A stretch of DNA of 63,983 nucleotides, the filler included, from Hausera hauseri (lineage: Eukaryota): the NCBI GenBank assembly GCA_046269625.1. It is 12 parts of 12 records of this genome, joined end to end, with 100 filler letters (N's around TTAATTAATTAA, not from the genome) between each part and the next. Parts side by side here need not be neighbours in the genome. Positions count along the whole stretch, not along the records: positions 12,757 to 20,064 come from JBJURY010023342.1; 11 more parts are not named here. One strand, written 5' to 3'. Every line of letters starts with the position of its first letter. Within the stretch, counting starts at the first letter, position 1. A program made the translations under genes and the position numbers. Under the pieces are notes generated by a model. The model saw nothing but the letters and a program-made list of their open reading frames with translations. It made no database searches and had not been told where the DNA came from. Below are positions 9,801 to 63,983 of the stretch, piece after piece.

Positions 9801-12144
9801 GTCTTTATTGATTATTATTATTGTGTAATATATTCTGATTTTGTGACACACATTTTACTGATGAACTTATACCAAAACCCTTAGCACATTTCAAAGTTTT
9901 GGTGATGGACGACGAAGCATATGTCCCCTGGGAAGAAATTTTATCACGGATCCTTTCGTTTCAGAGGCCACAATCGGCGGTAAAATATAACCGATTGAGT
10001 GTCTGAAGAAGCGTTTACTGCGCAGCGGGAGGAGGGGAGGAGGGGGATAAAATTGGCAATACAATTTCATGGACATAAATTTTGGTAGGAATAAGATTAC
10101 ATTTTGGTAGGTCTAATAAATCAATAAAATCAATAATTAATGGCCTATCGATTGAGGGAGAACCAACCAACATTTACCCGCTTATGGCAAATTCTCGTAT
10201 GCATTATTTGTTGACAAGAAGGAGGTCTACTGGGATTATTTCTTAACCATCATGTACAAAACAAGACATTGCAGCTATTCAGTCGATGGAATGCATTGAA
10301 AAAGAGCAAAAGCGGAAGAACGAGAGCTGTATATGCGATGTAGAGTTTGTTAAAGTGCAATGCGAACCAGGACGTCGTGGATGAATGGCAGGCATAGATA
10401 GGAAACATGAAGTCTAAGCTTACAAGAGAAACGTCGAATCACAGGCATTCTGTTCTTCTACAAAATCAGCAAATAAAGATCCGCCAATTCCTCCATCATC
10501 CGATTCGTCAGTTTCTTAAGCTGAAGGAGATTCCGGGAATAAGAATCGACGGTTAGGTTGTCAGTCAAGGAACAATGTAACGCTATCATGCAGACGATAG
10601 ACAACTGGAGTAAATGCAAGTTTACTCGTGGTCCCTTTGAGACAGTTGACTTCCCCTCTGCTTTTTTGACTTTGACATCACCGTTGAAGAGAAACGAATA
10701 ATGATTGAGGCAATTCATACTGTTGAAGGACAACAAGTATTCACCAACAGAGGATAGATTTAATACTAGAACAGGCGTCCGTCGAAAAAGATTCAACCAG
10801 ATAACCACCTGTAATGTTACTTGTGGTGTAGGTCATCGATTATGGAATTAGTGACAACAACAATATTTGTAAATATTTACCATTGATGGCATTTAAGTAT
10901 TATTTAGAAATCAATAAATAGTATATTTAAATTGAAATTTGAATAATTGAATGTAAATCAATGAATAGTTTATGAGAGATGGGTGTAATGGTATAATTAA
11001 TCTATATATCAAATTAAGCTAAATTTCATGTATACATTACGATACTCAGCATATTGTCCAAATGTGACTCATTCGATCGATAACTCATGGCCTGTTTGGG
11101 TAGCCCTTGCATTTTCAACAGTGTTGTATCAAAAGTTGCGTCGTCGATCGTTCTGTGTTGTCAATTAGCGGGCAATTAGCAATGAAATGGGAAAATGTAG
11201 TCATTAGTGATGAACAATATGATTAATAGTTCCATTTGTATCCATTTGTACAGTTGTCATAGTCAAATGAAATGGGAAATAATGAAATAACGGACATTTT
11301 GTTATTATTTATGATCGGTTGCGTTGGTTATTTCATAACAAAATACCTAACAGTACATAAAATGAAATGCAACTGTCAAACGTATAACAATTATCTCATT
11401 GTCGTCCTCTCTATTGTTCATTATTCAACTCGCATTGATTGCAAATTAAATTTTCATCTCACTCTCATCTATGAAAATAATTGTACTTTTATTGATTATC
11501 CCATTGGTTCTTTTTCTGTCTCTTTATTGATTAGTATACATTTGATGTTTAATATCATCACAAATGCCACAAGTGAAACGTCAAATTTTCATTATAATTT
11601 CATATGACACACACACATACATACACATATGCACACATACAATATATTCTTTGATTATTGGAAATGCCGGTTCTGGCACACACAACTCCTCCAGAAATTG
11701 CGCAATCCATCATGTGCTCTCATGATGCAATGTTAAAATTTGCGGAAATATACTCAGAGGACTAAGAAATTGACCTTAAAGGAAAAATGGCTTTTTGGAA
11801 ATTGCGTCATAACGAAGAAACATATTGCATCCAATCCGTACGGTCCAATGCCGTCCATATAGGATTCATTCGTCTCACTTCATTGAATCGAATCGAACGA
11901 CATGTTAACCAACTCCATTGGACGCACGGGAGCTGAGATATCGCACATCAGTACCGTTATCCAAACATTTTGCATATACCACTAGAATCGCGCTGACACG
12001 CCTACGTCAAAAATGCAACAACGCAATTCCCATAAACATACGAAAGGACTCATTTGGCCAGTTTTGTTTGTGCTTGCTGATAAATTATTTTAATTATGAT
12101 TATAATTAATTAATTATAATTAATCGAATTGTATGGCATTGTAG

Positions 12145-12509
12145 GCCATGAATATCGAATGTACAACACGTATGATGTCCACTATTACTCCAGTTGGGCA
12201 TTAGTCACGCTGTGGCCACATTTACAGGAGTCCATTCAATACGACATGACTGATGCCACAACTGCTGATGACCAATCAAATTGTTACTACGTCCATAAGG
12301 GTGTACAGGAAGCACGTAGTAACCGATTTGCCATTCCACATGATGCCGGTGATCCAGAGGAAGAACCATTTTTGTTGTACAATGCATACATCATGTACAA
12401 TACTGATGAATGGAAAGACCTTGGACCAAAATACGTGTTGCAGGTGTTCCGTGATTGGAAAATGACAGGGAATGATAGTTACCTTCGATATACATTTCCA
12501 GTTGCCATG
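12145..12509 (+). CDS. GBA2: GBA2 internal exon (3' boundary uncertain)
   Basis: G|HEYRMYNTYDVHYYSSWAL..LWP..Q...PHDAGDPEEEPF...NAY...WKDLGPKYVLQVFRD; joins the previous exon in phase across a 2.3-kb intron. Confidence 0.93.
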
Positions 12510-12756
12510 TTAAAGTATAAAATTGAAAGTTTATTATACAAATACGGTTAGCAAAATGTATGTATAGCAAGTAACGGGAGAAAAACACAGGAACTTGGTG
12601 AAAGTACAGAAGAAGATGGCGTATTAAGGATGAATAAAAGGGAAAAAGACACGAGGNNNNNNNNNNNNNNNNNNNNNNNNNNNNNNNNNNNNNNNNNNNN
12701 TTAATTAATTAANNNNNNNNNNNNNNNNNNNNNNNNNNNNNNNNNNNNNNNNNNNN

Positions 12757-14216
12757 TAAACTTCAATTTGCCAAAATCCTTTACGTAAATCTAATGTGGT
12801 GAACAACATTTTGTCTTTTAAATTATTCAGTATTTTATCGATCCTAGGTAACGGATAAGTGTTGTCCACTGTTACTTCATACAAGGCGCGGTAATCTAAA
12901 CACATCCTGATAGATCCATCTTTCTTTTGTACCATTACAATTGGGGCTGCCCATGGAGAATTACTTGGTCGAAATATGTCGTGCTGTTTCATCTCAGCTA
13001 TTATTTCTTTTGTCCTTTCTCTTTTATCATAATTAAGCCTATATTGTCTCTTCTTAATGGGAGTCTCCATTCCTTGTTTTAATTTAATTTCATGCTTGAT
13101 GACTGGTATTACTCCCATATCATATTCATCCACTGCGAATACATTCTTACATTGCTGTAATATTTTTATTATGCCTTCTTTTTCTGCATCTGTCAGTGAG
13201 CTCTCTTTACCAAACAAATCATAGTCATTCTAGTTGATAGGGGTTTTCGTAAGTTTTATAGTTTTATTATCTTTATTGAGATGGGTTTTTAATCTAATCA
13301 TTGGCTCGTCCTCGAACCGTATTCCACATTCTGCTTGTGGTTTTTGACGTTGTTTTTCTACGAATTCGGATAATTCTTGTACAGTGGAGATAATAGCTTC
13401 TATTGCCTTATTACCTACATCTTTTGTAATATATATGTAGGCAATTCTTGTGCCTTTCCTCAATAATTTTGGTTTATTTGAAACAGTAGCTATTCGAGAA
13501 ATTACTTGTTGTTCTCGAATATTATCGATCGCATGAGCAATCCATAATTAACTTTTATCCATAAAGTTTACATTTGGTTCAATGTATACATCTCCTTCCT
13601 CTCGACCTTCTACTAAAGCTTTAAACACAACTTCTGTCCTAGCTGGTATTAGTACATATTCTTTGATAGATACCGTATCCTTTTTCTCTTTCTTAATTTT
13701 TCGGTATGGTTGAATTTGTTGGGTTTCTAAATTTATACACATATTTTTTAATTTTGCTAACGCCTTACATTCAAGTATAGCTTCAGCTACTAATTCGTCG
13801 GCTATTCCAAATTCCTGTTCGAATTTTTGATTAAGTACTTTCGTTTCACATTTAATTAAGTCTTTTACCTGCACTTTAGTTCCAAATGCTCCAATATTCG
13901 TAATATCTTCTGTGGGTTTTTGTAATTTCTTTTTTAATTGTTTGGGCAACTGTTTCCGCAAAATCATTGAGGCCGATGCTCCTGTGTCAATTATTGCGGT
14001 GATAGGATATCCATCTATCCATATTACTGTGCTTGATATTACTTTACCTCCATCTATACTGGTTATCAATGCCTGTTTTGGAGCGGATGGATAGAACATG
14101 AGCTTCAAATGCTTTGAGTCATAATTGTCTATACCACTTGAATAATGTATATCTATATATTCATTAGGAGACATAAAGTGTTGCTGTTTTAATTGGTACT
14201 CATTCCACCTTCTCAT
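12757..14216 (-). mobile_element. Ty3/Gypsy aspartic protease - linker - reverse transcriptase N-terminal part (pseudogenised)
   Basis: AIIDTGASAS protease motif; RT motifs SPWAAPIVMVQKKDGSIRMCLDYRAL, YPLPRID, LDLRKGFWQI. ORFs starting at 14216, 13463 and 13217 share one frame, split by single stops. Confidence 0.93.
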
Positions 14217-14399
14217 CTGAGGAATATCTGATATTAAAGTCCTTCGCTTCTTACTTAGAGCAGTAATTAAACTCCATATCCTTCTAGTGTTTTCGGTTGG
14301 TTTAGGTATTTTCTCCTTTATCTTCTTTGGTTGGAATTTGTTTTGATCGTTACTATTATTATCGTCATCATTCTTGTTTTTGTTTTTCTGTTTTCATTC

Positions 14400-16240
14400 A
14401 GCGTCCTTTTTAATCAAAAAGCAACTAGCTACGGATGGAATTAGTGCACAAATAATTTTTCATGTACACTCAACAGCTTGTTTAATGCTCTAACCTTTGG
14501 TTATCATAGTCAAAATTGCTTTATAAAGGCGAAAATATAATAAAATCCCAGACATCCTGAATTAAATTGGCCAAACCACATATACCATCCCCATGCGGTC
14601 GCAAATATATCCTTAGCTATTTTCTAAGCATAGTCCGGTCCTATCAAATTTTCCCTGTTAGCTTTCCCGATGTGATCAGCTAACACTCTCATTGCAATCT
14701 CTGTTAGAACTTTTTGTCTATGTTGAGGGAACATCATCATTCTTCTATGGTTTTTCATATCTTGCTCGGAATACACACCCATCTTTACTAAGTCTATCAA
14801 TGGCTTATACGTTTGTTCGGTTTTGAAATTGATTAAACTAATCCTCCGAGGTGGAGTAATCTGATCCTTCTGCGGCACCCTTATCCATAAGTTATCGCTT
14901 AGTCGATATGCTGGCGACATAGTATATGTACAATTTGGCGTACATATGGTTTTTCTGCCGGATCTAATAATATCCGGGTGATTAATTGCAAGAAACGTGG
15001 TTTTTCCTTGTACCAGATAGGTAACTCCATGGTACAGTCGGTTGTTGGTCTGAGTTTGACAGCTACTTTTGTACAATCGAAAGTTACTAGCGTCTCACCC
15101 ATTGTTTGAGCAAATTTCCATTCTGCATGGGGAGACTCGGCTGGATCTTTTATTATTCCGTCCGTTATCGCAGATAGATATATTCGGTTTCTAATTATCT
15201 CTCTGTTCAATTTACAATCATTTAATATTATTTCTCGATACATAGCATAAATATTTTCTTGTTGGAAGTGATAAATAAAATCAATCTTATTATCGAAATA
15301 GAGATGAGGCTTCACTTCCGATTTATCAATCTTCCTTTTAACTTTTGTTATTTCTGTTGTGGATAAAAATGTCCCTTTATAATTTTTTCGAAATATTGTG
15401 TGGTCGCATCTTCTAGTGTCACTTTCTAATTAAAATCTCATTCCGTCTTGAGGATTTGCGGAATATACCATGGTAGGAGTCTCAATCATATCCGATACTC
15501 GGTCTAGTTTACTCTTAGATATTTCTTCTTTATACATTCGTCCTTTTGTTTCATTGAACTTTCCTGTTTTTAATAAAGCTAATTGACACTGATCCCTATT
15601 GACTTCATATGACATAATTGATTCACCAGTGTCACATTTTTTATTATAATAATCACATTCCGGGAACGTCATCATCTTTCCTGAAGACAGCTCAAAGAGG
15701 GCATCGTATTCTCTCAACTCAACTTGGTAATCTTCAATAGCCACTATATTATCTAAAATTTCGCCATTTATATTGTAAGACTCACCCTTACAATATCCCG
15801 TCTTATCAACTGTTTCAGCCACGAAAATTCTTTTATTGATAGTTTTTCCTTTCTGAGCTTTCAATCTAATATTGCCAATATTAATCTGTTTTGTCACAAA
15901 AGCCTCTATGCACATTCGTTTACTTATAGGAAGTGGTTCGAATGGAGTAGTTGGTTCAACTATTGCTGAGTTTCGGTACCAATATCCGAAAATGAAGTGA
16001 AAGTATTTCTTTCAAACAAAGCATTCTTTTACCTTAGTTTTCACAAACTCTGACTGTTGATAAACGTAGTACTGTTTTTCCTATATAGTAGTTAATGAGG
16101 CTGGATTGGCAAAAGGACATTGTTCTAAATCTAATAAGGAATATATTGGACCTTCATTGGCTTGGCTGCAATCATAAGCAATAATTGAAAGTGCTTCTGG
16201 CATCAGGCTAAACAAAAGAAGTATGGGTATTACTTTGGTT
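14400..16240 (-). pseudogene. Chuvirus/Monjiviricetes-like class III fusion glycoprotein (env-like), embedded in the Gypsy polyprotein
   Basis: Signal peptide VIPILLLFSLMPEALS then IIAYDC..YSLLDLEQC; GYCKG; ECDYYNKKCDTG; HLYFDNKIDFI...MYREIILNDCKLNR; GETLVTFDCTKVAVKLRPTTDCTMELPI; GVYSEQDM..RMMMFPQHR; C-terminal W/G-rich hydrophobic segments. Several stops and two frameshifts. Confidence 0.85.
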
Positions 16241-16698
16241 AGCTATGATAAGTCGAAATCCGGTTGTTGGTTTTGTTGTCTCTCTGATTGCTGAGGTGGA
16301 AGATATTCCATTCGTTGCTGTGTAGTTGGTGTCGATTCATGTATTGTTTTATGGACCAGGCTACTAATCCATCCACCTCTGCACTTTATCCATCCCTCGA
16401 CATTATCCTTTAATGCTCTTGTGGCAATTTCTATATTTCACTGTATTTCCTCCTGGTTCGGATTTACACCGTTCATTACCATTATTGCTGTCACAATTTT
16501 ATTTCGGTACATACCAGTTCCCATCATTCTTGAAAGAATATCCCTCTCCTGTATTTCATTTATCCTCTCGTCTGTAGGGATATCCGCAAATTGTTCACTA
16601 ATCTTTGCAATTTCATTCCTTATAGCATGCATTAGCGAATCCGGTATTTGTAAATTAGTATTAAACTCAACGAATACATTATGCACTCTTGCTAACAA
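16241..16698 (-). pseudogene. Unassigned helical plus Q/P-rich polyprotein segment, in frame upstream of the glycoprotein signal peptide
   Basis: Same frame as the glycoprotein N-terminus, with two in-frame stops; truncated at about 16700. Confidence 0.55.
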
Positions 16699-16699
16699 G

Positions 16700-17410
16700 G
16701 TTCAAAGAGATCAGACTATTGCTCAAGCCTTTGTCGAAGAAATTGTTTTTAATTATGGAGCACCGACTAAATTATTGACGGACCAAGCACCAAACTTCAC
16801 AGGAGAAATTATGGCGGAAATATTAAAAAAATTTCAAATACCACAGTTCAAAACTACTCCGTACCATCCTCAAACGAACATAACAGTAGAAAGATTTAAC
16901 GGAATATTAACTAATATGTTAGCGACCATGGTCAATGAACGACAAGACGATTGGGACGAATATATTAAACCATGTTTATTTGCAATAAGAAATACAATTC
17001 ACCCCGCAACCAAAGAGACACCCTTTTATTTAATGTACCTTAGAGATGCCCATATGCCAATTGATTTGGACTTTAAAATGCCCGTCTCCCATTTAAAAGA
17101 CATGGAATACAAAGAATTATTAGAAGAAAAATTAGGATATGTATGGAATTTAGCCTCACGTCATATAAAGATATGTCAAAAAGAGTATAAAGAACGCTGT
17201 GACGAAAAAGCTAAACCACATGACTTTAAACCTGGGGACAAAGTCATGTTGCATACATCCTTGAGTAAAAAGGAAAATACATCAAAATTAGACAGACCAT
17301 ACAAATGTCCATACATGGTTCAAAAAGTAGACGAAACTAACATCTACTTAAATAAAAATAAAAGAAATAAAATCGACCCCATAAAAGTCCATATGAACAG
17401 ATGTAAACCA
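16700..17410 (+). mobile_element. Ty3/Gypsy integrase core (N-truncated) plus GPY/F-like region
   Basis: TIAQAFVEEIVFNYGAPTKLLTDQAPNF...TTPYHPQTN..VERFN...DWDEY...TPFYLM...FKPGDKVML...KLDRPYKCPY...VHMNRCKP. Confidence 0.93.
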
Positions 17411-17439
17411 GCACCCGTGGAGTCAAAAATAAGGAATGA

Positions 17440-18600
17440 AAACCTCGGTCCATTACTAATAGAAACATTTGTAATATTAACTTTAGTGACTAGTATATCA
17501 GCCGAATCCTTGGCTGTAAATTACAAAGCCGTACAAGTTGGGAAATACCCTTGCATAAAAATCGCGGCTAATCGGAATTTAACAACAGATGAATATATAC
17601 ATATATTCATATCAGAATTACCTATAGTGGAAAAAGCAACGCCAGAAAACTGCGATTTGTACTATAATTATTCAATACACATTTGTTATTGGCTTTAATT
17701 CGGAGAAATGTATAGGATCGAATATGCAATTGGAAAGAGTGATCACAGTTACAGAACATATTTCTCATTCCCTGGTACTACCCATTATTTCCATCGATCC
17801 TATTTTCTTATTTCGTTTTACACTAATGTCATGAAAAATGGACCTTGTGAAACAGCAGAACCCGACATTACAATCACAAAATATATCAAATTTAAATATG
17901 CAATATTAGATGGAATCAACAACATATATTATAAACCAACTTATCAGAATCCTTACTAATCTTGTCCTATTGTTTTTGATAAGGAGTACGCAATATATTA
18001 TTGGACCGCGTATAATGGTTATACATTGTCAAAAACAGCAGATGGTCCGGAGACAATTGCGAAGTCCCTGATAAGGACAACAGAAAAAATAATTATTTTG
18101 GTAACACAACTGAGTAGTTCAAGAACACTACAAAGAATAGTAACTAGTCCAGCAATGGAACCAAAGAAAGCTATTAAGGAATTAGACATAATTATCCAAC
18201 AAACAACGCATTCATTAGTTATTACAGTGACAGATTTAAAGACTACGAAAATAAAGTTTGAATGCTATTTTAATCACAGGGTGGTCGGTGAAGGAATTTT
18301 AACTCCGGAGGAACCAACCTCAGCTTGCATATCTTTAAAAGAAAACACAAGCTATAAAGTTATTATAATAGAATTAAATGAAGAGGGTCAAAATATTCAA
18401 ACTATTAATCGAATAGAAAAGACATTAAAACAAGTGGCTATGACAAATATGAAGGCCATAAAAACAACTAGACCAGATTATGAGAACAACTCAAACTAAT
18501 ATATACAAATAATGATTGTATTATGTGTATTTTTAATACTAATAGTTATATTGTAACTCTTAACAATTTATTGTTCTAAAATAAAACGCAGCCAACGTAG
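17440..18600 (+). pseudogene. Type-I membrane protein (signal peptide, beta-rich/FN3-like ectodomain, TM) in frame after integrase
   Basis: LLIETFVILTLVTSISA signal-like segment; ORFs 16421, 17708 and 18026 share one frame; SLKENTSYKVIIIELNEEG resembles the FN3 LxPxTxYxVxV strand; TM IMIVLCVFLILIVIL*LLTIY followed by basic KIKRSQRR. Confidence 0.65.
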
Positions 18601-18608
18601 GACAAAAA

Positions 18609-19850
18609 ATGTTAAATGAATTAAAACTAATAAGGGAGGACGCCGAAAATGAACCAATAAAGAGAAAAGATGCGTATTACATTAAAAGCCTAAGGCAGGT
18701 TGAAAGACTTGCCGATCAAAAGCGACAAATTCGATCGCCTAAGGATATAACTATATGTCTGTGCACAACTATACAAGATAAGGCCTCTGAGTTCTTGGCG
18801 ACCTATCAAAAGATTAGACAATCAAAATATAAAAACATTTCCATTCTTCAAACCTCTCGGCTAATATTATATTTCTTTGTAGTCCAAGAAGGTTCAGAGC
18901 AAGCCCAAAGACAGAAATCGTTCTACCACAATATTACGGCCAATTCAACGGCAACCATGCATAAAGATTATTCATACTTCGGCAAAGCTTCACGCATACA
19001 AAACAATTTAAAATGTCACTTAGTAACCCAAAGGTGTGGTCTTATTATCAAATTGCAAAGCCGATCGGCGAACTTAACAGATTTAATTGATATTTCTGGG
19101 CGAACCAGATCTGTCTATATTTCAGTAGCAAGAGAGGCCGTTCAACTTAAAAGCAGATTCTTGTCAAATAATATAACCGATACCGTAGAACTTTTGGCAT
19201 TTACGACAATTCACCTTCATCAACAGTTCTACAAAAATGCCGCGATTATTATACGAACTTATACTGGATCATCACCAATAATATATATCGAGGTAACGAG
19301 AAAAGATGTACATAAAGTACAATACGACATGCCTACTTATGAAACACCTATATCAAAACGGTTTAAATTAGAGACAGGTATATCATTCTTTAGAAGTTCT
19401 CAATTTACTAAGCAAGATGTCATGATAGTAGCAATTAATTTAGCTTACACGATGACTCCAATTCGGAATAAAGAAACTACTCCAGTTGAAATCACTATAA
19501 AAACATTGAAGGTGATATTATTTTGGATCAAATTATTTGTCCACGAGATAAAGATGATAACTACAACACATATCACTGGCCTTAAGGAAATGGATTTAAT
19601 AGGTCAAATGGATACTAATCAAGTTGAATCCCAAATGAGGAAAATATTAATCGGAAAACCAATAATCGGAATGTACGTATTTAAACATTCAAATACATCA
19701 TATCTTGGGACAATATCCTTGACCTACGGGATCTATTTTATCATAAAAAAATTAAATTCCAAAATGAAGAAACTACAAAACAAATGTTTACAAGATTTAA
19801 TGAAGGTATTTAGCCGCAGAGAACTTCAGAAAAAGCCTCAACGATATTAA
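18609..19850 (+). pseudogene. Cytoplasmic accessory region ending in a degenerate REX4/ISG20-like DEDDh exonuclease fold (about 19425-19690)
   Basis: IVAINLAY...PVEITIK/(shifted frame)NIEGDIILDQIICPR/...THITGLKEMDLIGQMDTNQVESQMRKILIGKPIIG follows the REX4 pattern; the ExoI acidic residues are absent. Confidence 0.6.
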
Positions 19851-26557: not shown

Positions 26558-29500
26558 TATGCGATGTGTTTGCTTGCAGAGGTTGAAATTGGGGGAAAAA
26601 TTGTCAAATTTTGTAGTGAATGTTGTATCGTGCAAAGGCGAGTCAGAACGAAGGGAAGAAGGTGAAGAATGGAGAAAGATTGTTGGAGACGGATGGTTAA
26701 AGGTATTCAAGAGAGTGTTATAAGACGACGGAGTAACAACAGGCGAAATGGCGGATGAAAGAGGAGAGACGAAAATTAAAGTAGAAATTGGAATTGTGTT
26801 AGGCGAAAGAGTAGAAGTAAAAAATGAGACAGAGGGAGTGGTAGAGAAAGAAAGAGAGATAGGAATAGAAGTAGGAGGTGGAAAATTATGAAGCAGAACT
26901 AGGAGCAGGAGGTGAAACTGGTGTAGCAACAAATAAAGGAACAGCAGGAAATGTAGGAGTAAAAAAAGGGGTTGACGTGTCGATTGGTGAAGTGTCGTCG
27001 ACAAAGAAGGCAAGCTTTAAGTTGGTACTGTAAGTTCTTTACAGTCTTTAGAGATAATAGCATTATGTGAATGCAGCTGTATCAGTTTATAGGGCCCCAA
27101 ATACCGCGACTGAAAACCGCACGGCGTATGATTTTTTAGCCATACGAATTTTGCTGAATACAAGTTTTTGTGTAAATGTTTTGTCTTTGTGAAGTATGCC
27201 GCAGAACGAATCTTTGCTGACCGTAACGAAGTGATTTTGCGCCGCCCGTATCGTTTTATCTGTAGGAGCGTCGTCCAGGCAGTTAGTTCGAACAATGTTC
27301 GTACAGGAGCTCCGAATAATACTTCGGTAGGTGAGCATCCCGTAGAAGTAGACGGAGTGTTCAGCCAGCCAAGCAAAACAAACGGAAGAAAATTCGTCCA
27401 ACTAGTGTTGGACTCTGCAAGGGTTCTTAGTGACGTTTTCAATGTTCGGTGGAAGAGTTCTAGGAGGCCATTCGATTGAGGATGGTAAGGCGTAGTATGT
27501 ATGTGATGGATCCCCAATCGGTTAACAAGGGATTTGAACATGTTGGATTCAAACTGTGGACCCTGGTCCGTGAAGATGAAACGAGGTGATCCAAACCTGC
27601 TAATCCATGTGCGAATGAAAACGTCAGCTGTGGTATCAGAGTTCATGCTTCGCAGAGGGATGGCTTCTGGCCATCGCGAGGAACGGTCCATCATGGTAAG
27701 AATGAATTGATGACCGTTGTCTGAGGAAGAGGGCCAACGATGTCGATATGCACGGATTCGAAACGCGATGTGCAGAGGAAGTGGAACAGTGACGGCTTTA
27801 AATGCTTAGTTGTTTTGAATTTTTGGCAAGCCATACACTCCTTAACCCATGCCTGCACATCAAAACGCATTGACGGCCATATTACTTGTCGATGGAGTAA
27901 ACGAAAAGTGGCTTTAGCATCAGGGTGGTGTAGCGAATGTACGCTATTGCAATGATGGTGAGAGAATTATGACGGAATGACCTGGTTTGGAAGTGTCTAA
28001 AGCCACGCTGTCAACAATTGTGCAAGATTTGAAAGCATTAAGCATGTCTTGAGGTGGCTGGTTCTGTTGAAGTTAAGCTTGCGTAAAAATCGGTGAAAAA
28101 TTAATCGAACTAACCGACCTACATAAAAAATCGGCAACGATTTTATTAACCCCATTAATATGTTTTATGTCGAAGTTAAATGTCGACAAGTATGATAACT
28201 GTCGTTTTTGGAGTGTGGAAGGATGTTTCATAGCCATGATGTTAAGTAAGGGTTTGTGATCGGTTTATATAGTAAAATGGCAAGTGACAAGTAGGAGAAA
28301 TGCTTTAAAGCAAGAGCGATGGCCAATAACTCTCGATCGAACGTTGAATATCTGGTTTCAGGGGGTGTTAGCTTGCGAGAAAAAAATTCTAGCGATTGAT
28401 TTTCTCCTTTGTAGATCTGGTGTAGTACAGCACCTATCGCAGTGATTTAAGCGTCTGTAGTAAGGATGAGTTCTGCAGCAGGCTTGGGAAAAGCGAGAAT
28501 GTCGACGGTCTTAATTCATTCGCGTAGCTTATCAAATTTGTCTACAAACTCAGGTGTCCACTGGATTGGCTGATGTTTTTGCCACCGCTTGCGTGCAAAT
28601 GGTGCTGTCAATTCGGAGCAATATGGTACATATTTGTATACAAAGTGTAGTATACCGAGGAAGCTGCGCATTTCGGTGGTCGTACGTGGCAATTGGATAT
28701 TCTTAAGGGCTTCAACGCGGTCTAGTTGAGAAGAGTGGCCGTCTGGTGAAATAACGTGACCTAAAAAGTTGATGCGCTTTTTAGTGAAATGGCATTTTTC
28801 GAAATTGGCTTGGAGATTATGGTGGTTAAGGCGTTGGAATATTGCGTGTTGTTTGGACGAAGACGAAACGATGAGAATAGGATCAATGTAAGGGTGCGCA
28901 AACTGGAAATTTGAGAGAATCGAATCAATATGTCGCTGAAAGGTCTGGGCGCATTTCTTAAACCGAAAGGCATAAACAGGTACTTGTAGAGGCCAAAAGG
29001 AGTAGTGACAGCAGTTTTTTCTATTTCTTCGGGTTCCACCGGTATTTGGTGGTATGCTTTGGCTAAATCGATGGTCGAATATGTTAGTTGAATTAAGGCG
29101 ATGCAGGATGCCCTTGATGAGTGGTAAGGGGTAGGAATCCATGATGGTCAAGTTGTTCAACTGTCGGTAGTCACCACGTGGTCTAAAAGTACAGTCATTT
29201 TTTGTACAACGTGTAAAGGTGACGACCGAGGAGATTTCGAACGGCGTACAATGCCGGAGCGTTCTAGTTTAAGAAATGCGGCTTCTACGGCTTGTCTACG
29301 ATGAGGTGACAGTGGTCTTACCTTTTGACATATTGGTCGTTGATGCTGTGCAGTTATGAGATGTACAGTGCTGTTTGTAGGAATCAACGCACGATCTTTT
29401 TTAAGTACGCGTGGACATGATGTGGTAACGGATTGCTGTAAAGTTGTAGGTAACTGTGAGAGATTTGGCAGAAGTGATGAAACGGCTTGAGTAGTAGCGG

Positions 29501-31563
29501 ATGCAATTTGTAAATTGTTTTGTGATGTGCAGTCAAGTAGTATTTGGTGTAAGATGGTCGAATTAAAAATAGTGTTGGATGAAGTGATTTCGTCGAGTGA
29601 ATGAACATTTGTGGCAGTACCACAATTATCGATATTGAAGCTCGATCGAATATCAATATTATTATTTAAAAATTTACGAATTGAATTATTGTTATAGAAA
29701 TTCGAATTATATATTGATTTTTCCAAAATTCACCTCCGTGTCTCGATCGATTGCACGGTAGTTAAAATGCTATTGACATGCTCAGTATTTCTGCCAGTGA
29801 TGCCGCTCCTCAGACATCGTTGACTACAGTCAACCAATAAATTATAATGTGATACAAAATTGGACCCTAGAATTGCCATCTGGATGTCAACAACTGTGAA
29901 TGTCCAGTGGAAAGGTGAAGGAAATTTTGGTAAGATGAAAAATAATTTAGCCGTGACAGAAATGCGCAGCGGTTGACCTGAAGGGGTGTATAAGTGTTTA
30001 ATTCTAAATGGTGAATTTTGTACAGAGAAAGATTGTGGTAATAAGGAAATCGCTGCACCTGTATCAATGAGGAAATATACGGATTGCGTTGTAGGAGAGG
30101 TGATTGCAGCCTTTAGAGTAAAGACAGCAAAAGAGGCATGTCGGCATTCAGAAAGTGAAGTAGTGCTTTTGCCAAAGTTTGCCGTGACTTCTGGAGGCAA
30201 ATTTAGTTTTTTTGAAAAGGTGAACTAGGATGACTATTAGAAGAAAAGGTAGTACTTCCGTCATTCGTGTCTGGTTTCAAAGTGCAGCCTGGAATGAATT
30301 TACGAGTTTGATTTTTAAACTTTGCGTGGTAAATGCAAACAACGGTGACTGAAGGAAAACTTTTATTGTAAAATTTGCACCCTTTGCAGCATTTCTTGGC
30401 ATTCTTGTTGAATCTGCTGTGATAATAGCAGATTGACGACCGCGCAGGCAATGGTGACCAGTTTTTAGATGCAGAATGGGCGAGGTTTGCAAGAAAATCC
30501 CTTCGCCGGGACACGGAAAGCTCATTCAATTTGTTGTTTATATTGTTAATGGTTGCGTGTAGTGCGGTATTTTCAGCACGTAGCTGATTGAGTTGTTGTT
30601 CTATTGATATGTTATTGGTTTGAATATCATTAGGGGCAACTGCCGCCGAAACAACTTATGGACAATGTAAGTGTAGAACACCATGTGTTTTATCAGCTAA
30701 TTCGGTCAATTTATCAAGAGCCGTGGAGTCCTCCACCACGGTAAGTAGGGCCCCAATTTGGATAAGTAACGCGATTAAAAAGTAATGACGCAGTAGTTCG
30801 GGGTAGTGTTCTTTACTGACGCCGAGAGTTTGCAGATGTGACAAAGACGTGCCTAAAAGTTATGATGGTCGTTGTGTGCGTATAGAATTGTCGTGGAAGA
30901 AGCGTTGTATGACGGTGTCGATTGAGGGTTCTGTGATTTTAAGAACAGCGTTGGAGAGCTGTCAGTATGAGTCAGGAAGTTCAAATATTTCAAGGCTGTT
31001 GTTAATTCGTGTTTTAATGTTGTTAGGGAGTAAGAAGAGGATATTGTGTCTTGGTTAAGGGGTCGGTGATATTGTTTGCCTGTAGCCACAGTTGATGGAA
31101 TTGCAGCCAAACTTTGCTGGAGCCTTGGTTGCCAATGAAGAATTCGGTGCAATTAGGGAAAGGAGCGAAAGGGGTAGTAGGTAAAGTATTATTGGTGGAA
31201 GAAGGAATGGATTTTTGAAGTAGTATGACAAATTTTGGTTTCGTGGTGGTTTTATCCGTGGTGTCTATGGTGGGTGATGAATTCATGCCACCACGGATGC
31301 GGAAGTGTATGTGGAAGTGAATATAAGTTGAAAAAGGTTACAGGGTACCAACGAGAGGTACCATGGAGCCGTGGTGTGACGTAAAAGTCAGATGAGCGAA
31401 GAAAAGTGGAGGACGTAGTATATAGTAGCAGTGTTTAATTATGTTAATGCATTTGTACGAATGTTTATTATTTAAAGAAGAGGAAATACGGAGATGTCGT
31501 GTAGCCGGGGGCGTGTCGTGGGGGTTCAGTAAACGGTGTCGCCTGACCCAATGATATAGGGTG
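26558..31563 (-). mobile_element. Near-complete degraded Ty3/Gypsy element: gag - PR - RT - RNase H - IN - Pro/Ser-rich tail
   Basis: Gag with CYYHSRF..AKKC..C motif; FLIDTGAAISLLP; [22 protein letters not shown]; RNase H SRKLTPPETRYSTFDRELL; IN RWPEAIPL...TDQGPQFES...YHPQSNGLLE...YLGPYKL. Confidence 0.92.
30206..30212 (-). promoter_or_regulatory. A_AAA_AAC -1 ribosomal frameshift heptamer at the gag/pro junction
   Basis: Minus strand CAA AAA AAC TAA ends gag (stop 30205-30203); the -1 frame continues KLNLPPEVT into the protease ORF. Confidence 0.75.
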
Positions 31564-32487: not shown

Positions 32488-35400
32488 TTACATAATATCC
32501 TGCTGCACATAACCATGAGGCAGTGTTCTAATGCCATCCTCCCTTATCCATCGCTTATCGTCGTACCAGTCCCAGCTTTTCTTCACCAACTTAACTACTG
32601 CGATCTTATGTTCTCTGGACTGTATCCTTTTTATTTCGGACTTGATATTGCATTGATCCCGCAGCACCCGAACATAATAATCAAATGTTATATTCCTGGC
32701 CAGTGTTGATTTTTGTACCCCTTTGCCCGTTTCTTAATTTGTCTGCACACAGCGATGGCGTACATTTGTGACCGAAGAGCCACAAACCTCGATATTATCC
32801 TTGTATTAACTTCGTCCTTTAACTTGCCCAAAACCTTCTTATTCATCAAAGAATAATTTCTGTGTTCTTTAGGGTAATCGGATGTATCCATATGTGTAGC
32901 TAATTTGGCAAAGTCATCATACATGTCCGCCGTTTGAATTTGATACACGAAGGAGTCAGTATCCATGTACATTAGCTGCAGCCTTTTGTTGAATGTTGGA
33001 ACCATTACGTCATAATGGAAATTTTACATTAGTGTCTTCGATATGTCCAGTATGGACATGCCAACATATATGGGCTTACTGAATTCCAGGCTCGTCTTAA
33101 GCATATGGATACTGACGAGGTTTTCTACATATATAATACTGCTGTGAAAGTTGGGCTTCGTAATTAGTTTTTTCGCCCTCTTCCAATCACAGACCAGTTC
33201 TATATTTATTCGGTTCCTGATGTTCTCCATTGTTTTTCCGAACACAATGTTGTTGTACAACTTCTACTGGTTCTTTTCGAAGTCATTTTTCGCGTCGGTC
33301 CTCAGCTTTGTGTTAAAATCGATATATGGTTGCAGCCACCTGGATTGACTGAACCAAAGGGATCGATGGATCTTCGTGATGCGGAGTCCATTCTTTATCG
33401 CCTGCTGGAGATTAATGTAATGTGCTACATATCTCTCCTTGTTCTCCATATAACAGAGCAATTTTGTAAATTTTCTGTTTGGCGGCTGTTTGCTGTCTGA
33501 GAGGAAAAACAGCTGTTCATGCCTTTTGTGGATATCATTTGGGTATTCCACGTCTACCTCCAATATGTATCCAACATCTCCGTTTGGGTCCAGGTCCTGG
33601 ATCTTGATCTCGTCCGGCTGCTCATCTCATTGAAAATTGCTGTATGGTAATAGCTTGCTTATTGCCCAACCATATAGGTTGTTTGCATCTAGGTATGTGA
33701 CGTATTGGGATGGTTTCAATGCATCATAATCTGCCATATAAATGTAGTTGGCTTCACTATATCTGTGAATGGCCTGACAGATTCCTCCCCTGATTCCTCG
33801 CTCGATCATGAAGTCCATGTTATAGTCCTTTAGGATCTGCAACCGGATACCCGTATATGTGAGCATTGCTGCCCAACTCATTTCAGAGGCAGTAGAGAAA
33901 TGAGCCGGATCCAGCTTGTGACTCGCAAGTGTGACGTCTCTGAACCTTTCGAAGACGTTCGTAAGCAGCAGCACGTCTGTTTGGAGATATACATCGCTAT
34001 AATCTTCAATTGTCCTGCATTTGAATGTCTGCCAGACTCGCTGTGAGTGTTCATAATCAGTATCACTGATACCTGTGTCTGACAGTTTGCTGTAGAAGTC
34101 TTTCTTAGCTGGAAGTGTTGTCTCGTCCAATGATCCCCACGAAGTTATATAATTATAGGGGAAAACACCACTCCTTTTGACTAAATCGAAAGTTGTTGGG
34201 AAAAACTTCTTCGTTTCCTTCAACTTTTCTTCTGGTAGATTTTTGATCAGGCTGTCCAGTAACGATTCCATAAAACGATAACTGTCGATAAATCTAAGTC
34301 TGGTGTGGCCCACATATATAGTAAATGAGATATATTTCTCTTCGCTATTCGGGATCACCTGAATGTCACCCTTAATGTTGCCGAATTCATGAATAGTGAA
34401 ATGGGAGTTATATCCACTGAGATTTTGGAATATGACGGGGACATGTGAACAGGTTTTACATCGTAGGTTGCAATTGTTGCAAGCTGCGCCTCTGTATTTG
34501 CCGGTTACATGGCAATGATCCCTTACCTGCCTGTTCTTTATCGTACATAGGCTTCTGCATAGGTAGTATAATGTTGCCATATGCACATCTGGATTCTCTG
34601 ATGATGACATCACATTTGTATCTTTACGTTTCTGTCGAATCTCTTGAATTCTGTAGACCACATCCTCCAATCGCTTTATGAAGTGTGCCGCTGAATTTTG
34701 ACCCTTGAATAAGAATGGCTCCGCATCGAGTCTTTTGTCATACATACAGTATGATGATAACTCGTGCTGCTGGTATGCCGTTTCGCTACTCCATTGAGAA
34801 TTGGGACTACAACTGTGCACTGGTCTGAGGATCGCTTCAAAGTCGCAGTATATAACTACTGGCACTTTGAGCATTTTTTCGTACTCCTGGAACTCGATAT
34901 AATTTTCCTTAGGAAATTCAGTCCGGATGCAATAGTTTTTATTGCAGTACATCCTATGTTCCTTGAGCTTCTCCTCAGCACCTTCACCGCTAAAATGTGA
35001 CAAACAGCATTTGCATATTGTAATTCCTTTATGATTTTTTGTAATTTGGGATCTGATGAGACGTTCAAAATTCCTTATCCATACGTAGTGGCTCTTATCA
35101 CCATCGTCTATCATGAGAAGATCCTTATGGTCATTACGTTCCACCTCACACACGTTTAGGGGATAGAATCTATTTGTTTCGTCCACTGAAAATTTATTAA
35201 TGGATATATGATTCACACGTGCAAATTTCTTGATTTCCTCCAAAGTTTGTGAAAACGTCATGCAATCAAAATCATAGCTATGCCGTAAGTCATTGCACAA
35301 CCAAACCCGCGAGGCATTATGTTCATCCGCTATGAGTTTCGATAAGATGGTATATTTAAAGCACATGTTGTCCTGATTGAGCACATTTACACATGCTTTC

Positions 35401-36214
35401 TTCTTGCGGATCCACTCTGGGAGCTCTATGTAGGAGCTACCTCTCATCGGGCTGTACTTATGTACATGAATCATCAATCGCGTGACTGATGAGAGAGCCC
35501 AGCTGCTCCCCTTATACTGGCTCTCCTCACCTTCATGGATAAGTTTTGTATATTCCTCATTGATCCATTCTTGAATGTTGGTAGACTGCGTTATCGGCCT
35601 ATTCTTCGTCTTGAATGTCCGATGTGATATTTCGAAATCGACATTACTGTATGCTGCCTCTAACTTAAGGTTGACTTGAAGGGCCTTGAGTTCCACCAAA
35701 ATGTCCTGGATGATACCCATACTTTCATTTGATGCAGAGTCCAGGAACTCATTGACGGTTGAATGACCTGTTGCGTCAATTATATATTTGCAGACCTTAC
35801 CTCCGAGTGCAGATGAATCAACTGACCGCTGCCTCTGACTTTTAGGTGCGGCACTAGTGGCTGCCGCAGCACCTCGGAAGTCAGCATGGTGGACTGTATG
35901 GTCTGTGTATAACTGTGAGTATTCAGCGCCGGTCACAGTCTCGCATACTGGGCAGATGTAATAGTCCAATCCATAATATTTTTGCCCATAATATTGTCGC
36001 ATTACTCTGTGGCAATCCTCCGAATTATGTGCTGCTGATGTGCAGTAGGTGTATGTTGGACACCTTTGAGTATTCGGTTTTTCAGCATTATGCACAGATG
36101 GCATATTTGAACGGAATATCTACTTCTTGGATTTTGATGCAAAATATTCCAGATGGTGGGCATGATCTTCTTGAAATTCTTCATGCGTTCTGCATATCGT
36201 CTCACATCTGGGGC
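32488..36214 (-). mobile_element. Polinton/adintovirus-like protein-primed family B DNA polymerase (broken into several ORFs) with an endonuclease VII-like Zn domain
   Basis: GSSYIELP, IYCDFEA (ExoI), RDHCHVTGKYRGAACNNCN, FIDSYRFM, YLDANNLYGWA, NNIVFGKTMEN, YMDTDS, DDKR. Confidence 0.93.
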
Positions 36215-55294: not shown

Positions 55295-55394
55295 NNNNNN
55301 NNNNNNNNNNNNNNNNNNNNNNNNNNNNNNNNNNNNNNTTAATTAATTAANNNNNNNNNNNNNNNNNNNNNNNNNNNNNNNNNNNNNNNNNNNN

Positions 55395-58112: not shown

Positions 58113-59931
58113 TCAACAATGGTACATCATAATAAAGTTTGCTGGAAGTGTTATTCCATTATTCTGCATCGGACTGAAACTTATGAATCTAATGACCCTA
58201 GTGGCCCTCAACATTTCTCCCCCTTTGAAAAGGATTCGGTCCTCCGGATCACACTGGGTACTGGCATCGATAAAACTGAGATTTCTGGGTCGAATTGTTA
58301 ACGTTGAATCATTCACTGGGTTCATCCAATGGCATAATTGCTGGGTATGGTTATCGTAGACGTAGGAGAAGTGGTAATATTCTTATGGTTGGCGGCAGTA
58401 GGGACATGACATACCGTTCTGAAATGTCATTTGGAGTGCATTGTTTGGATCAATGGATTGAAGGAATTGATAACGGAGTTTATTGAAATATGTTGCACAC
58501 AAGGTGTGGTTACATTGGAATTGGACTATTGTTATTCTCTCGGTTAGACAAATTGTACATTCGTAGGTTGGAAGTTGATCGTAAAAGAGAATTTGCAATG
58601 TTGCCCAAAGATTTGGTGGGGCTAAATTGGAAATAAGGTCGATTCGGCATTTACTGAATACGGGGAACCAATCCTGTTGTAATGATATTGGTAATGGAGG
58701 ATTATGAGATATTGTTGGTGTAGGCGTTATCGAAGGTGCAAGTACTAGTAATTCAGATAACGGTCTAATGACTCTTTCAGGATTGTAACGTGGATGGGGG
58801 ATTCAAGATGGCTGGTGTAGAAGAGACATTATGTTTATATGGGGTAAAGGTACTTGGTATACAAAAGATGGTGGTTGGTTTATTGTAGATGGGCTAAAAC
58901 AATTGATAGGGAATTCAATTCGAACTGAGGATTGCTGTTCTAATCGAAAGTATCTTGTGGGTAATAGTTGAGGAATTGGGGTGTTAGTAATAGTAAGTAA
59001 GGCTCGACTCGGGTGATGGAAGTAAGAAGATATGTATTCAGGGCAAAAATAACATACTGCAAATTAAACATCGATGGTGGGATTCCAACTGGTAACAATG
59101 AGAGCAGTATTCTGCATTACAGCAACTAAATTGGTAATCTGTTTTATTAGGTTTATTGCATAAACAACAAGTATGTAATTGAAAATAAAGAATAGAAAAG
59201 GGTGTTGACACATCCCATGTATAATAATATGTAACGTGATCAGAAGGTTCAATGATTTCGAGAGTTTTGGCGTGAAGTAAGGTTTGATCGGCATCAGATG
59301 GGAATGCGTTATGCTGGATGCAATATTTTATCTCATACTTGCAGATTTGACAATAAGGCATGGGGTTTGCCTGGGATTTTGCTCTATCTATGCAGTATGA
59401 ACAGAACATATGCAAACATAGTGTTAATCTGTATACGACATTGAGGATCGCTCGACATTCCATACATTCTGGGAAATCTAAAAATAAGCATAATTAATTG
59501 AGATTTAATTCGATTGTATTAAGATCTATACAATTATCAGTGTCTTCAATATATAATGAGTTGGATAGGTAGTTGTACAATTGTCTAAGTAAATGGGCTT
59601 GTACTAATGGTAATGTATATGTAGGAAGTATAGTGGTTCGTAGTAATCGTTTGCTTAGACGGATTATAGGTACGGGGTCTTTTGAGAAATTTATAGAGAT
59701 AGGATGGTGGTAAAAATCGGAGAAACCATTGGTATCACTAATAGGCAATTTTAATGAACATAAGAGTAGATCAAGTTGTGATGTTATTATAAATTTGTGC
59801 TGCAATATATCTTGTATAAGGGGTACGAAGTCTTCATTATCGATTTTATACAAGGTAAGGTCATCAGTTATGCCTGCAAAAAGTGTTCTCCAATCGATAA
59901 CTTTATGTCTGGGATACATTTGTTGCTGTAA
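58113..59931 (-). pseudogene. Decayed long reading frame with three RING-like zinc fingers and Pro-rich linkers
   Basis: CMEC...CLHMFCSYC...CQIC; CCLC...CCNAEYCSHC...CLIC; CTIC...CNHTLC...CPYCRQP. ORFs starting at 59919 and 59463 share a frame; no introns apparent. Confidence 0.7.
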
Positions 59932-60569
59932 NNNNNNNNNNNNNNNNNNNNNNNNNNNNNNNNNNNNNNNNNNNNTTAATTAATTAANNNNNNNNNNNNN
60001 NNNNNNNNNNNNNNNNNNNNNNNNNNNNNNNACTTACAATCGTCTGATCGTGAGGCGCTTAGAATATGAAATGCTCAACTGCTTTTGGGCTATCTGCCGA
60101 AACAATTTCCACCACCAGTTGATTTGCTTAAGTGGGATTTTCACCGGTTTGAAATTTTCCGACTGAATTTTCCCCATGTTTCCATGGTCTGAACGAGTTG
60201 ACATTGTGTGCCTTCGATTCCTCGACATTGGTTTGACATGTCCACCAAAGATTGCAAAATTCGTAACTCGTGTCGCGTTTCTCATAAAAATTTCCTGTTT
60301 TTCTTCTTGCTTCTAGTGCCGTCCAGTAAAATATTTAACTCTCGCCGCGCTAAAAAATTTTTCTCCCCTCATTGAGCTCTTTCGATTTCCGTCGGTGACA
60401 TGTGCGACATGTGACATGTGCTTTCAATCCTGGGGGGGGTCTTCCGATCTCGAGACATGAAATGCTCAGAATTGCGAGATAGGTGGGGAAATTATATAGC
60501 GAAGCTCGAAAAATGCTTTTGAAAAAATTTTCCGACGGTGGTTGAGAGCCCACACTTCTACTTACTGAC

Positions 60570-60670
60570 ACGGGCCATATAAAGTCGTGGATGTACGCCA
60601 ACAAACTATTTTCGTCCAGAAAGGACCGAACAAATATGAAGCTGTGTCCCTACAAAGAGTAACGAAAGCA
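60570..60670 (+). mobile_element. Ty3/Gypsy integrase C-terminal GPY/F region
   Basis: GPYKVVDVRQQTIFVQKGPNKYEAVSLQRVTKA, in frame with ORF 60587..61132. Confidence 0.65.
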
Positions 60671-60779
60671 TCAATATCATACAATGATTTCATAAGACAG
60701 GTAGAGTTAGAGTCATCAGATAAAGTAGAACCAAAAATAGCGGCTCTATTTCAGAGGCAAAACATGGATAACTTTAAAT

Positions 60780-62420
60780 TTATGAGTTACCGAGTTTACC
60801 CCATATGGGGTAGATACTTTGGCATGGTATTCTTTATTTTATTGACGTTTTTCTCACAACTTGCAGCTGCTTTATACAACTTTACTAAATTGGTTATATA
60901 CACAACCATTTCTCATATTGATAAAAGCGAACCTATTATTTGCTTCCGAACATCCGTACGGGTATACTCACATTACAAAGTGAAGTTTGCATTCACATCT
61001 TCAAATAAAATATCAACCAGTTGCACTATCCCGGATAAACATCATCAGACTTGTTGCCAACTAAATTATGATACTTCTTATACTTCTTATGTATTATTGA
61101 AATCTTTAGATCAGGACGGATATAGTATTTAATGGAACCCGAATATTAATGTTAATATCCCTCTTCAGGATATCGTGGATATTTTAGACAAACCAAAATC
61201 AGATATGGTACTCTATGATGAGTTCACTGCTTAATTCTTAAAAAATAATACTGCGATATCAGAGATAAATTCGGTCCGTCCTTGCATCAATTTCCGAACT
61301 ATACAACCTTTGCACCTTAGATACAAAATTCATATATGGTATGATGCTCACCCCAGATATGTGCATCAACCACATTTCTGTTATCTCAATAGAGCACATC
61401 CTCTAGTATGCTATGCTCTCCATACTAATATTCGGTACATAATCCGTTTTGATATGTACTTCAGCAAAGGCACTTTTCATCTAATACAATCCTCGCGATT
61501 ACCAATCTTTATCATTATTAAAAATACGCAGATAAAATCTATTTTAAATATTATCCATGTTCCAAAAATTTCTACACGTACAGCCACCCACAAGAGTAGA
61601 GGAGAGATAGGAATAACCAGAGAAGTAACCAAAGCAACCACAAGAGTAGCAGAAGTAATCAAACCGCTGACGAAGACAATAAAGAAAGACAAGCATATTT
61701 TCAAAGGAAGATTTATGAAAAATTTCCCAATCGAATTTAAATTGAAACCTTATACAAATAGAATCGAGATAACCATTTCTCAAAAAATAAAATGAAAAAA
61801 TTCGGATAAAATGTACAAGTATCTACTAAAAAGTCGAAATCAAGTTTTCCAAAAATAAACGCAATTTTTGTGAAGGCCTAACACTGGATACAAATAATTT
61901 TGTCAAAATATACACGAAAGATAATTCAAAATTAGTGACGATAAAAGCGTCACCCTTAGCAGATCAATATCAACACATAAGATATAACGAAGAAGATGGA
62001 AGAATGAAAACAACCACAACTTTACCGGACATTACAGAATCGTATTTACTTAAATATTAGTGGAAAATTGGGTAGTGTTAGGAATCGGTACAATATGTCT
62101 AATCATAGCAAAATATAATCATAAATGAAGTGTAAAAGAACAAAAAATAATGAATCCCATTACTACGAAATAATACGAAACAACAGAAATTATAAGATAG
62201 TGGAGTTAAACAATATTGAACCACAGAATATTACAAAAGACATACCACTGACTCTTAATGAAATTCAGAGAAGAGAGAAATATACACAAACCACATTATG
62301 TTTTATACCTCTCTTACTAATCAGATTAAATAAAGACAGCACATACAAAATTTAACAACATATTGGTACATAATCCTTATGATTGGTGGACCAATAATAA
62401 TGAGTTATTTTAGTAAGAAT
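60780..62420 (+). pseudogene. Post-integrase signal peptide / ectodomain / TM protein, homologous in layout to 17440-18600
   Basis: YFGMVFFILLTFFSQLAAA signal-like segment; ORFs 60587 and 61310 share a frame; NNRNYKIVELNNIEPQNI vs ENTSYKVIIIELNEEGQNI; hydrophobic YWYIILMIGGPIIMSYF then basic residues. Confidence 0.5.
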
Positions 62421-63520
62421 ATCAAATCCAATCAAATAAGAAAACGAATCAAATTTAACTTGTGTGTTAACACGAATAGATATAAATTAGATATAATTCA
62501 ACAATTTTTCAGTTTAATCGCTGACAATATGTCAAGAAAGCAGAATAATGCTCCCGAAATGGGAAGCGGGAACTCATCAAGAAAAAGAATCAACGCTCCT
62601 AAAACAGGAAGCTCAAACTCCAGGCGAGTTATCGCAAACGCTACCGAAACGGGAAGCACTCAGGATTTCGGACAAAGAAGAGGGACAAATAAAGAAAAAT
62701 ATGACAAAGAAGGAATTAGAAAACTTTCCGTCATTCGCCAAACTATGTCGTACGCATTTTACGACAAAATAATCGCGCATCTCGATCAGGATAATCAATT
62801 TATTGACGAAGTCTCAAAAATCCCAAATTATTTCAAATATGGAGAAACGAGGAACCGATGCTTACTTCCATTTAAATTATATCACTTTGATGCTATTCTC
62901 CCTCTCACACAATGGATGAACGAGAATAAAGGAATAACAGCTCACATAGCATTAGGCAGAGTTCAGATAAATTTTAGAAAATTAGATGGCAAGGAAAATC
63001 GAATAGAGAAAATTGACCATCAAGAATCGTTACAGATCAACTATGCAATAGACCCAAAAGGAATCACAACTGTTTCAAGAGAAATGCTAACCATTGGCCC
63101 TATTGAGTATTATATTGCAGAAAGTGTATACTCAATGCCAGAGCTAATAAAATTTAAAAGTGAACCAAATGAAGAAGAATTACGAAGAGGATCCAATATT
63201 TTATTAACTGACAGAGCAAAAAGCATCAGGTACTTAGCGACTTCCTTTGCATATGGAAAACGATCAAATGGAACCCAGATTCCATTGCCTATTGAAATCA
63301 TTATTGCGGAATCAAATGGTGACATTATTTTTTCTGAAATAATATCCCCAAGAAGAGCAATCCATAACTTGAATAGAAACCGGCACAAGATAGATTGGAA
63401 TCAAATTCAAACCGGAATGGATTGACCAAAACTTAAAGCTGAAGTTACAAAATTTACTTTGGGATATAAAATTGTGGCGTTAGAAGTGCACAAGTCGTTT
63501 AATGCGCTTTGCATACTGAT
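62379..63520 (+). pseudogene. Cytoplasmic accessory region with degenerate REX4/ISG20-like DEDDh exonuclease fold (about 63231-63510)
   Basis: YLATSFAYG...PIEIIIAESNGDIIFSEIISPRRAIHNLNRNRHKIDWNQIQTGMD*PKLKAEVTKFTLGYKIVAL; homologous to 19425-19690. Confidence 0.6.
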
Positions 63521-63983
63521 TATTCGAGCTTGCGCAGTTGTGGATCCCATGAAGAATGTATAGAAAACTTATAATCAACAGATAACTAATATATGTCAAA
63601 TAATAGCTATGCTGAAACTTCTCCAATTTCCGAGTACTACGGAAGGAAGACTCCAGTTAACTATAGAAGCTCACAAGAAAACTACCGATCACTATGTATG
63701 GACACCAACTGAACCCCAAGGAAACATACTTGATTATGGAGACTTATTGAATCAAAAAACGTCCATTTGATGTTTAGGCCACGTAGTAAAAGAAACAAAA
63801 TTCAAGAACATTCCAATGAAGGACAAGATCGAGCCTGGTGAATTTGATGTATCTAACTGTCAAATATCAGAAGGGGAAACAGATGATTAAATGAGAGTGA
63901 ACAAAAGAAAATATTGATAAAAAGGAAATGCGACTGGACAACGCAAGTTCAGATATCTACTCAAACCGAAAGTTTAGAAAAGA

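Follow-up and report, generated by a model that had tools for sequence, protein, structure and literature searches.

A likely Burro-type gypsy element of Hausera hauseri with a predicted second membrane protein and a putative pseudo-exonuclease beyond integrase

Burro elements are described as encoding, in order, a BCL2-like domain, a mononegavirus-like fusion protein, a protease, and a reverse transcriptase (RT), with nothing described after integrase in the sections of PMC6431247 consulted, and the accessory cargo reported in the consulted portions of two accounts comprises BCL2, BIR, RING, and ankyrin domains (PMC6431247; PMC13465017). The element analyzed here resembles Burro and GYPSM1, as outlined in the consulted parts of three sources, in the succession of BCL2-like domain, envelope (env), protease, and RT on one strand, in its very high copy number, and in its accessory cargo (PMC6431247; PMC13465017; PMC8532177). 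It differs in that integrase continues into a predicted signal, an ectodomain, a helix, and an apparently dead nuclease. Burro and GYPSM1 are characterized by a single gag-to-integrase frame of ~4,900 aa and by a size over 30 kb, with long LTRs and BIR, ankyrin, and MATH cargo. The present copy is decayed and apparently inverted, carries five stops in its BCL2–env frame, and is known from a 7.3-kb contig. Searches with the present element returned no Burro pol sequence. GAG-ENV-POL errantiviruses of the HSV/gB type, which according to the consulted part of PMC13524379 occur in Platyhelminthes, Nematoda, and Bryozoa, likewise place a class III env before gypsy pol, and by eye the env studied here lies near the env sequences listed for Smed_errantivirus_1 and _2 in the supplement of that paper; a single envelope protein is described for them in the same part, and the words "exonuclease" and "fibronectin" have no occurrence in its main text as consulted. 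The bdelloid LTR elements Juno and Vesta carry an active DEDDy ORF3 (PMC5408684; mentioned in PMC6338049), which is also a DnaQ-fold nuclease domain located 3' of pol. In the consulted sections of PMC5408684, ORF3 is RNase D-like, keeps its catalytic residues, has no TM domain, and replaces env, whereas the tail described here is of the ISG20/REX4 kind, has no D-x-E, is preceded by a membrane protein, and occurs alongside an env. In the literature searched, no second membrane protein or nuclease was described for Burro or gypsy elements, and the enveloped retrotransposons covered had one envelope protein each; the primary Burro papers (Grohme 2018; Lee 2026) and the eLife figures, which lay outside this search, may annotate the region.

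The window, i.e., the whole stretch of 63,983 nucleotides analyzed, consists of 12 contigs joined by 100-base N spacers (N runs start at 4288, 8402, 12657, 20065, 26458, 31564, 36215, 40686, 50154, 55295, and 59932), and contigs on either side of a spacer are unrelated. False inverted repeats in the window arise from spacer arms. The element under study occupies the contig at 12757–20064 (JBJURY010023342.1), and both of its ends lie outside this contig. Two arms can be distinguished, one on the minus strand from 16701 downward and one on the plus strand from 16703, the latter starting in the middle of integrase (Table 1).

Table 1. Features of the element and of related pieces in the window
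Feature	Position	Strand	Remarks
Protease and RT start	12757..14393	-	Cut by contig end; 2 stops in 545 codons
Class III (gB/chuvirus-like) fusion glycoprotein	14624..16242	-	PF24664, E 1e-33 and 1e-14
BCL2-like domain	16369..16641	-	Pfam Bcl-2, E 0.014; same frame as fusogen signal, directly before it
Strand junction between arms	16701..16703	.	Opposite coding strands on either side
Integrase C-half and GPY/F region	16703..17431	+	0 stops in 239 codons
Predicted internal signal peptide	17444..17503	+	Kyte-Doolittle (KD) 1.82 over 19 residues; cleavage site by eye
Predicted ectodomain	17504..18499	+	~330 codons, 7 Cys
Predicted TM helix and basic residues	18509..18616	+	KD 3.39 over 19 residues for 18509-18565
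Predicted cytosolic linker and conserved middle domain (~18897-19320)	18585..19410	+	Aligns with P0004 and second element
Putative DEDDh (REX4/ISG20-like) pseudo-exonuclease	19411..19850	+	Profile comparison; without D-x-E
Third piece: putative pseudo-exonuclease C-half, then RING fingers	58389..59931	-	E 7e-5 to P0004
Second, highly diverged element	60569..63707	+	Separate contig; tail E 3e-8 to P0004

On the minus arm, Pfam profiles place a protease at ~13746-14024 (RVP, E 1e-7) and the RT start at ~12762-12932 (RVT_1, E 2.4e-7); between them, in a fitting place, a dUTPase-like stretch was recognized by eye, with no Pfam match in the scanned piece. The fusogen possesses an internal signal (~16186-16242), and its frame is disrupted by stops and frame changes; frame changes also occur between env and protease in the present copy. 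The BCL2-like match spans profile positions 6–100 of 100 at 16.3 bits, under the cut-off of 31.4, and comparison of this piece with the PDB yielded no Bcl-2 chain in the best 60 of 84 rows, which were chance rows. The BCL2-like piece and env share a frame with five stops, and the decay of env amounts to five stops in 600 codons. A relationship to Burro had been guessed in the original prediction and is upheld by this BCL2-like match, albeit one under the cut-off, directly before env, in the order given in the consulted sections of PMC6431247. The fusogen that had been placed upstream is likewise present, but on the opposite strand in this copy. The element is likely a decayed, high-copy-number member of the Burro-type GAG-ENV-POL gypsy elements, with a host that is probably a flatworm.

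Both arms are covered by contigs at 80% identity or more in each of two runs (X1 and X2). In X2, seven loose ends ahead of position 16702 were read by eye as the absent N-terminal half of integrase, and none of the pieces listed bridges the junction at ~16702. The junction reflects either an inversion of the present copy, which is most likely, or an assembly chimera. Since env and the extension beyond integrase lie on opposite arms with no bridging piece listed, we infer their membership of one element.

Integrase was matched by Pfam rve (E 7e-4) and by an integrase C-terminal profile (E 4e-14), and its frame remains open to 17695, passing through a hydrophobic stretch at 17444–17500 with no stop between. 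The frame closes at 18617–18619 and contains in-frame stops at 17696, 17957, 18497, and 18554, the last of these inside the predicted helix. The expectation that integrase reads into a second membrane protein was borne out in its open frame, signal, ~330 intervening codons, helix, and basic residues, but these four stops had been overlooked. Across 398 codons the four stops compare with 28 and 43 in the other plus-strand frames, a count equaled in none of 5000 shuffles, and this degree of decay is comparable to that of env. Other copies lack two of the four stops among the 40 of 88 rows listed, stops 17957 and 18554 not being among those rows. In X1, 608 of 626 depth units (29 contigs) are free of stop 17696, as are all 31.6 (five contigs) in X2; stop 18497 is missing from all 38.5 depth units in X1, and X2 does not cover it. 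Contigs of ~84% identity (18288–18441 and 18406–18715) lead from the ectodomain through the helix into the beginning of the downstream frame. Third codon positions account for 19 of the 40 differences listed (p 0.044, a weak result from rows chosen by the tool). No introns interrupt the extension, and numerous contigs belonging to the repeat family of the element cover it, as opposed to what would be seen for a host gene with introns. Judged on its coding pattern, the integrase frame likely goes on to encode what is predicted to be a second membrane protein, of type I.

The ectodomain has no relative in Pfam, the PDB, or the protein search. Its AlphaFold model is all-beta but of low confidence (pLDDT 37.5), and a Foldseek search with that model returned no match at E<=0.001; both are uninformative. 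For the FN3-like strand foreseen in this region, the resemblance is by eye, neither Pfam nor the PDB gave an FN3 match, and a profile of 28 bacterial FN3 domains scored at shuffle level against the membrane-proximal ectodomain (635 of 1000 shuffles equally good). Glycosylation sequons are not enriched, with four in the ectodomain versus six in the predicted cytosolic frame.

The second frame (18585–19847, plus strand) is open over 421 codons, with no stops in the 368 codons tested as against 37 and 25 (0 of 5000 shuffles). A single relative, P0004, was recovered among 1.84 billion protein representatives (E 2.8e-7); it constitutes a single-member cluster and matches the tail only. P0004 itself matches ISG20L2 in the PDB (E 0.0026) and connects two more pieces of the window (E 8e-6 and 7e-5), with E 3e-8 to the second element. 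A profile built from the four-sequence alignment also matched ISG20L2 in the PDB, at E 1.9e-4, and in the Atlas the RNase_T clan accounted for all 10 of the best matches with a family (top score 0.88), a result taken as a lead only. Against a profile of bacterial DEDDh domains, assembled from 19 of 30 loci (L140 from the unpublished genome G149, L137, L146, L155, L156, L157, and five weak or partial DEDDh loci being left out), P0004 scored above 250 of 250 shuffles and the pieces of the window above 247, 245, and 248 of 250, in one register throughout. In this register, anchored by the alignment to the bacterial profile, the D-x-E of motif I is, by eye, absent from all three element sequences covering the first strand and present in five of five DEDDh controls from E. 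coli. Pfam gave no match for the nuclease domain, the AlphaFold model of the nuclease tail (pLDDT 33) gave no Foldseek match at E<=0.001, and hhalign with one or few templates proved too weak even for the nuclease. This pattern is consistent with the pseudo-exonuclease that had been proposed: the domain likely adopts a DEDDh fold without the catalytic D-x-E and, as far as sequence motifs can tell, is likely non-cutting. The prediction of ~410 aa ending in a REX4/ISG20-like fold agrees with the 421-codon frame and its DEDDh-like domain, but a second frame change probably occurs inside the nuclease near 19690, where a weak match appears in another frame (E 0.6-0.8), so that the long frame likely ends in ~50 codons of the wrong phase. 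For the middle domain, a resemblance to an AlkB-like 2OG-Fe(II) barrel was seen by eye, with no match in the PDB or Pfam, and two small bacterial profiles (seven and nine sequences) did not rise above shuffles. Residues 4–27 of P0004 form a hydrophobic stretch (KD 2.77 over 13 residues), in frame and directly before the middle domain; this stretch may represent a helix or a signal, or may be an artifact of a broken copy.

The same order of features recurs in the second element, comprising a GPY/F-like stretch, a signal (60818–60874), an ectodomain, a helix (62054–62110), a decayed stretch, the middle domain, and the pseudo-exonuclease (63138–63449). The GPY/F-like stretch was identified by eye, and its integrase identity was not confirmed. 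No similarity to the first element is detectable outside the tail, and the two ectodomains are not alignable. Upstream of 60569, non-coding sequence lies where the integrase core would be. In the third piece, the nuclease runs across one stop into RING fingers (Pfam E 0.024 and 8e-7), and another RING lies in a different frame. The contig of this piece also holds heavily decayed remains resembling RT, RNase H, and integrase, by eye, at 55400–56300 (minus strand). We regard the feature as real, belonging to a family and seen here in a broken copy; no intact family member was found in the searches made. Protein searches with the tail returned none of 3114 candidates (738–2105 aa) and none of 4060, 0 of 107 viral contigs contained the tail, and no phage record did. 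The gypsy relatives recovered match integrase alone, in 14 of 14 proteins and in eight of eight metagenome loci (eight of 46 stretches). Another decayed gypsy element, with gag-like, protease, RT, and integrase portions (rve E 8.5e-12), lies at 27017–30655 on the minus strand, and the extension was not detected in it by tblastn.

The original prediction attributed the change of frame between helix and nuclease to a single frameshift in the A-run at 18604–18609, and this was not supported. Among the 16 of 444 pieces listed, three contigs bridge the A-run with at least 31 letters on each side; one is ungapped, two are gapped somewhere, and no indel reached 45% at the A-run, in addition to which the frame contains the four stops described above. 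Among the rows listed, six of 10 differences at 18590–18746 fall on third positions of the downstream frame. Given the ungapped contig, the lack of an indel at 45% or more, and these third positions, the frames probably break shortly before the A-run or else are separate by construction. The latter arrangement is a serious but less probable alternative. In it, the basic tail would be the end of the membrane protein, and an accessory ORF, expressed through splicing or re-initiation, would encode the pseudo-exonuclease, which would act in the cytosol or nucleus, e.g., as a decoy in RNA silencing comparable to Maelstrom or EXD1. It would account for the frame change in the present copy, for the contig that reads ungapped from 18559 to 18714, for P0004 opening with a Met of its own (its contig has 1561 bases), and for the RINGs behind the nuclease in the third piece, and it has a precedent in the bdelloid DEDDy ORF3s, which the consulted part of PMC5408684 describes as separate ORFs. 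The obvious start codon gives a divided answer, as none of the 8.45 depth units of X2 depart from ATG 18609 but all 24.6 depth units (five contigs) of X1 do, and the next Met is inside the conserved middle domain. Also weighing against a separate ORF are the gaps in two of the three bridging contigs and the six third-position differences of the downstream frame, three of which lie before or at ATG 18609. We give an even chance to the arrangement in which the helix and the dead nuclease of intact members form one chain; in none of the sequences examined were a strong helix and the nuclease found in a single open frame.

The reading we favor, at a probability of roughly 55%, takes the plus arm as the 3'-terminal part of a GAG-ENV-POL element resembling Burro, the polyprotein of which would also give rise to a further membrane protein, of type I, and to a non-cutting, RNA-binding DEDDh domain. 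This suggests that such elements would make two different membrane proteins, as had been proposed; within one element family, the fusogen is joined by a second signal–ectodomain–helix unit in frame with integrase. It is quite probable that one polyprotein crosses the ER membrane twice, at the fusogen and again after integrase, and is cut by signal peptidase and the element protease. In this topology, cytosolic gag and BCL2 would be followed by a signal, the lumenal fusogen, a helix, cytosolic pol, the second signal, the lumenal ectodomain, a helix, and the cytosolic tail. Such alternation of signals and helices, as in standard ER topogenesis, fits a single polyprotein; cleavage by signal peptidase would follow the second signal, the element protease would free integrase, and production from a single chain would keep the second protein in step with the fusogen. 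The most likely role, we think, is that of an envelope accessory, a proposal made tentatively and with somewhat less than even confidence, in which a rapidly changing ectodomain would engage host molecules next to the fusogen and the dead nuclease would keep RNA, uncut, near the membrane. Paramyxoviruses pair an attachment protein with F, and herpesviruses pair gD/gH/gL with gB. The likeness to these two-glycoprotein entry systems is by analogy alone, a fusogen accompanied by a second, more variable surface protein, and no sequence or fold relation to them was found. The bolder extension, in which Burro-type elements have an envelope and enter cells by means of two proteins cut from a single polyprotein (a gB-like fusogen encoded ahead of pol and a separate attachment protein encoded behind integrase, the cytosolic dead nuclease of the latter tying genomic RNA to the budding membrane), is unlikely. 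Class III fusogens of mononegaviruses usually perform binding and fusion alone, which favors instead a surface protein of the carrier cell that stays outside the particle and modulates the host as a decoy, superinfection block, or signaling molecule. Such a protein would be akin to the host-control cargo of Burro (BCL2, BIR, RING, and ankyrin domains in the consulted parts of PMC6431247 and PMC13465017). That role, a serious rival, is nonetheless somewhat unlikely: production in step with env from one chain would fit a particle component equally, and no receptor-like relative emerged from the Pfam, PDB, or Foldseek searches. Passive capture of a piece of host mRNA with no role for the element is very improbable. 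Contigs at 80% identity or more do thin after ~18330, but such thinning cannot rank parts and carries no weight here. The join is in frame with the signal at a workable place, the same order recurs in the second element, the ectodomain has no host-gene relative in the protein search, and three diverged sequences have lost the same catalytic motif and retained the fold. As a candidate, a second membrane protein arising from the integrase end would offer a concrete means by which these very abundant elements may choose cells or tune their host. Loss of the catalytic motif across several lineages would point to RNA binding, e.g., in packaging or in interference with small-RNA silencing. Annotations of pol that stop at integrase overlook ~1,000 codons.

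Several other features were observed on the remaining contigs. Stretches resembling a Polinton/Maverick-type DNA polymerase B by eye lie at 33627–36119 (minus strand) and 54588–55346 (plus strand), the first with an Endonuclease_7 match (E 2.5e-5). A long satellite of 16-base units extends over ~40730–50150. Two alike lysine/glutamate-rich, coiled-coil-like frames, recognized by eye, share one contig (944–1528 and 3216–3827, plus strand), and an exon-like piece at 12120–12551 (plus strand) presumably resembles a non-lysosomal glucosylceramidase.
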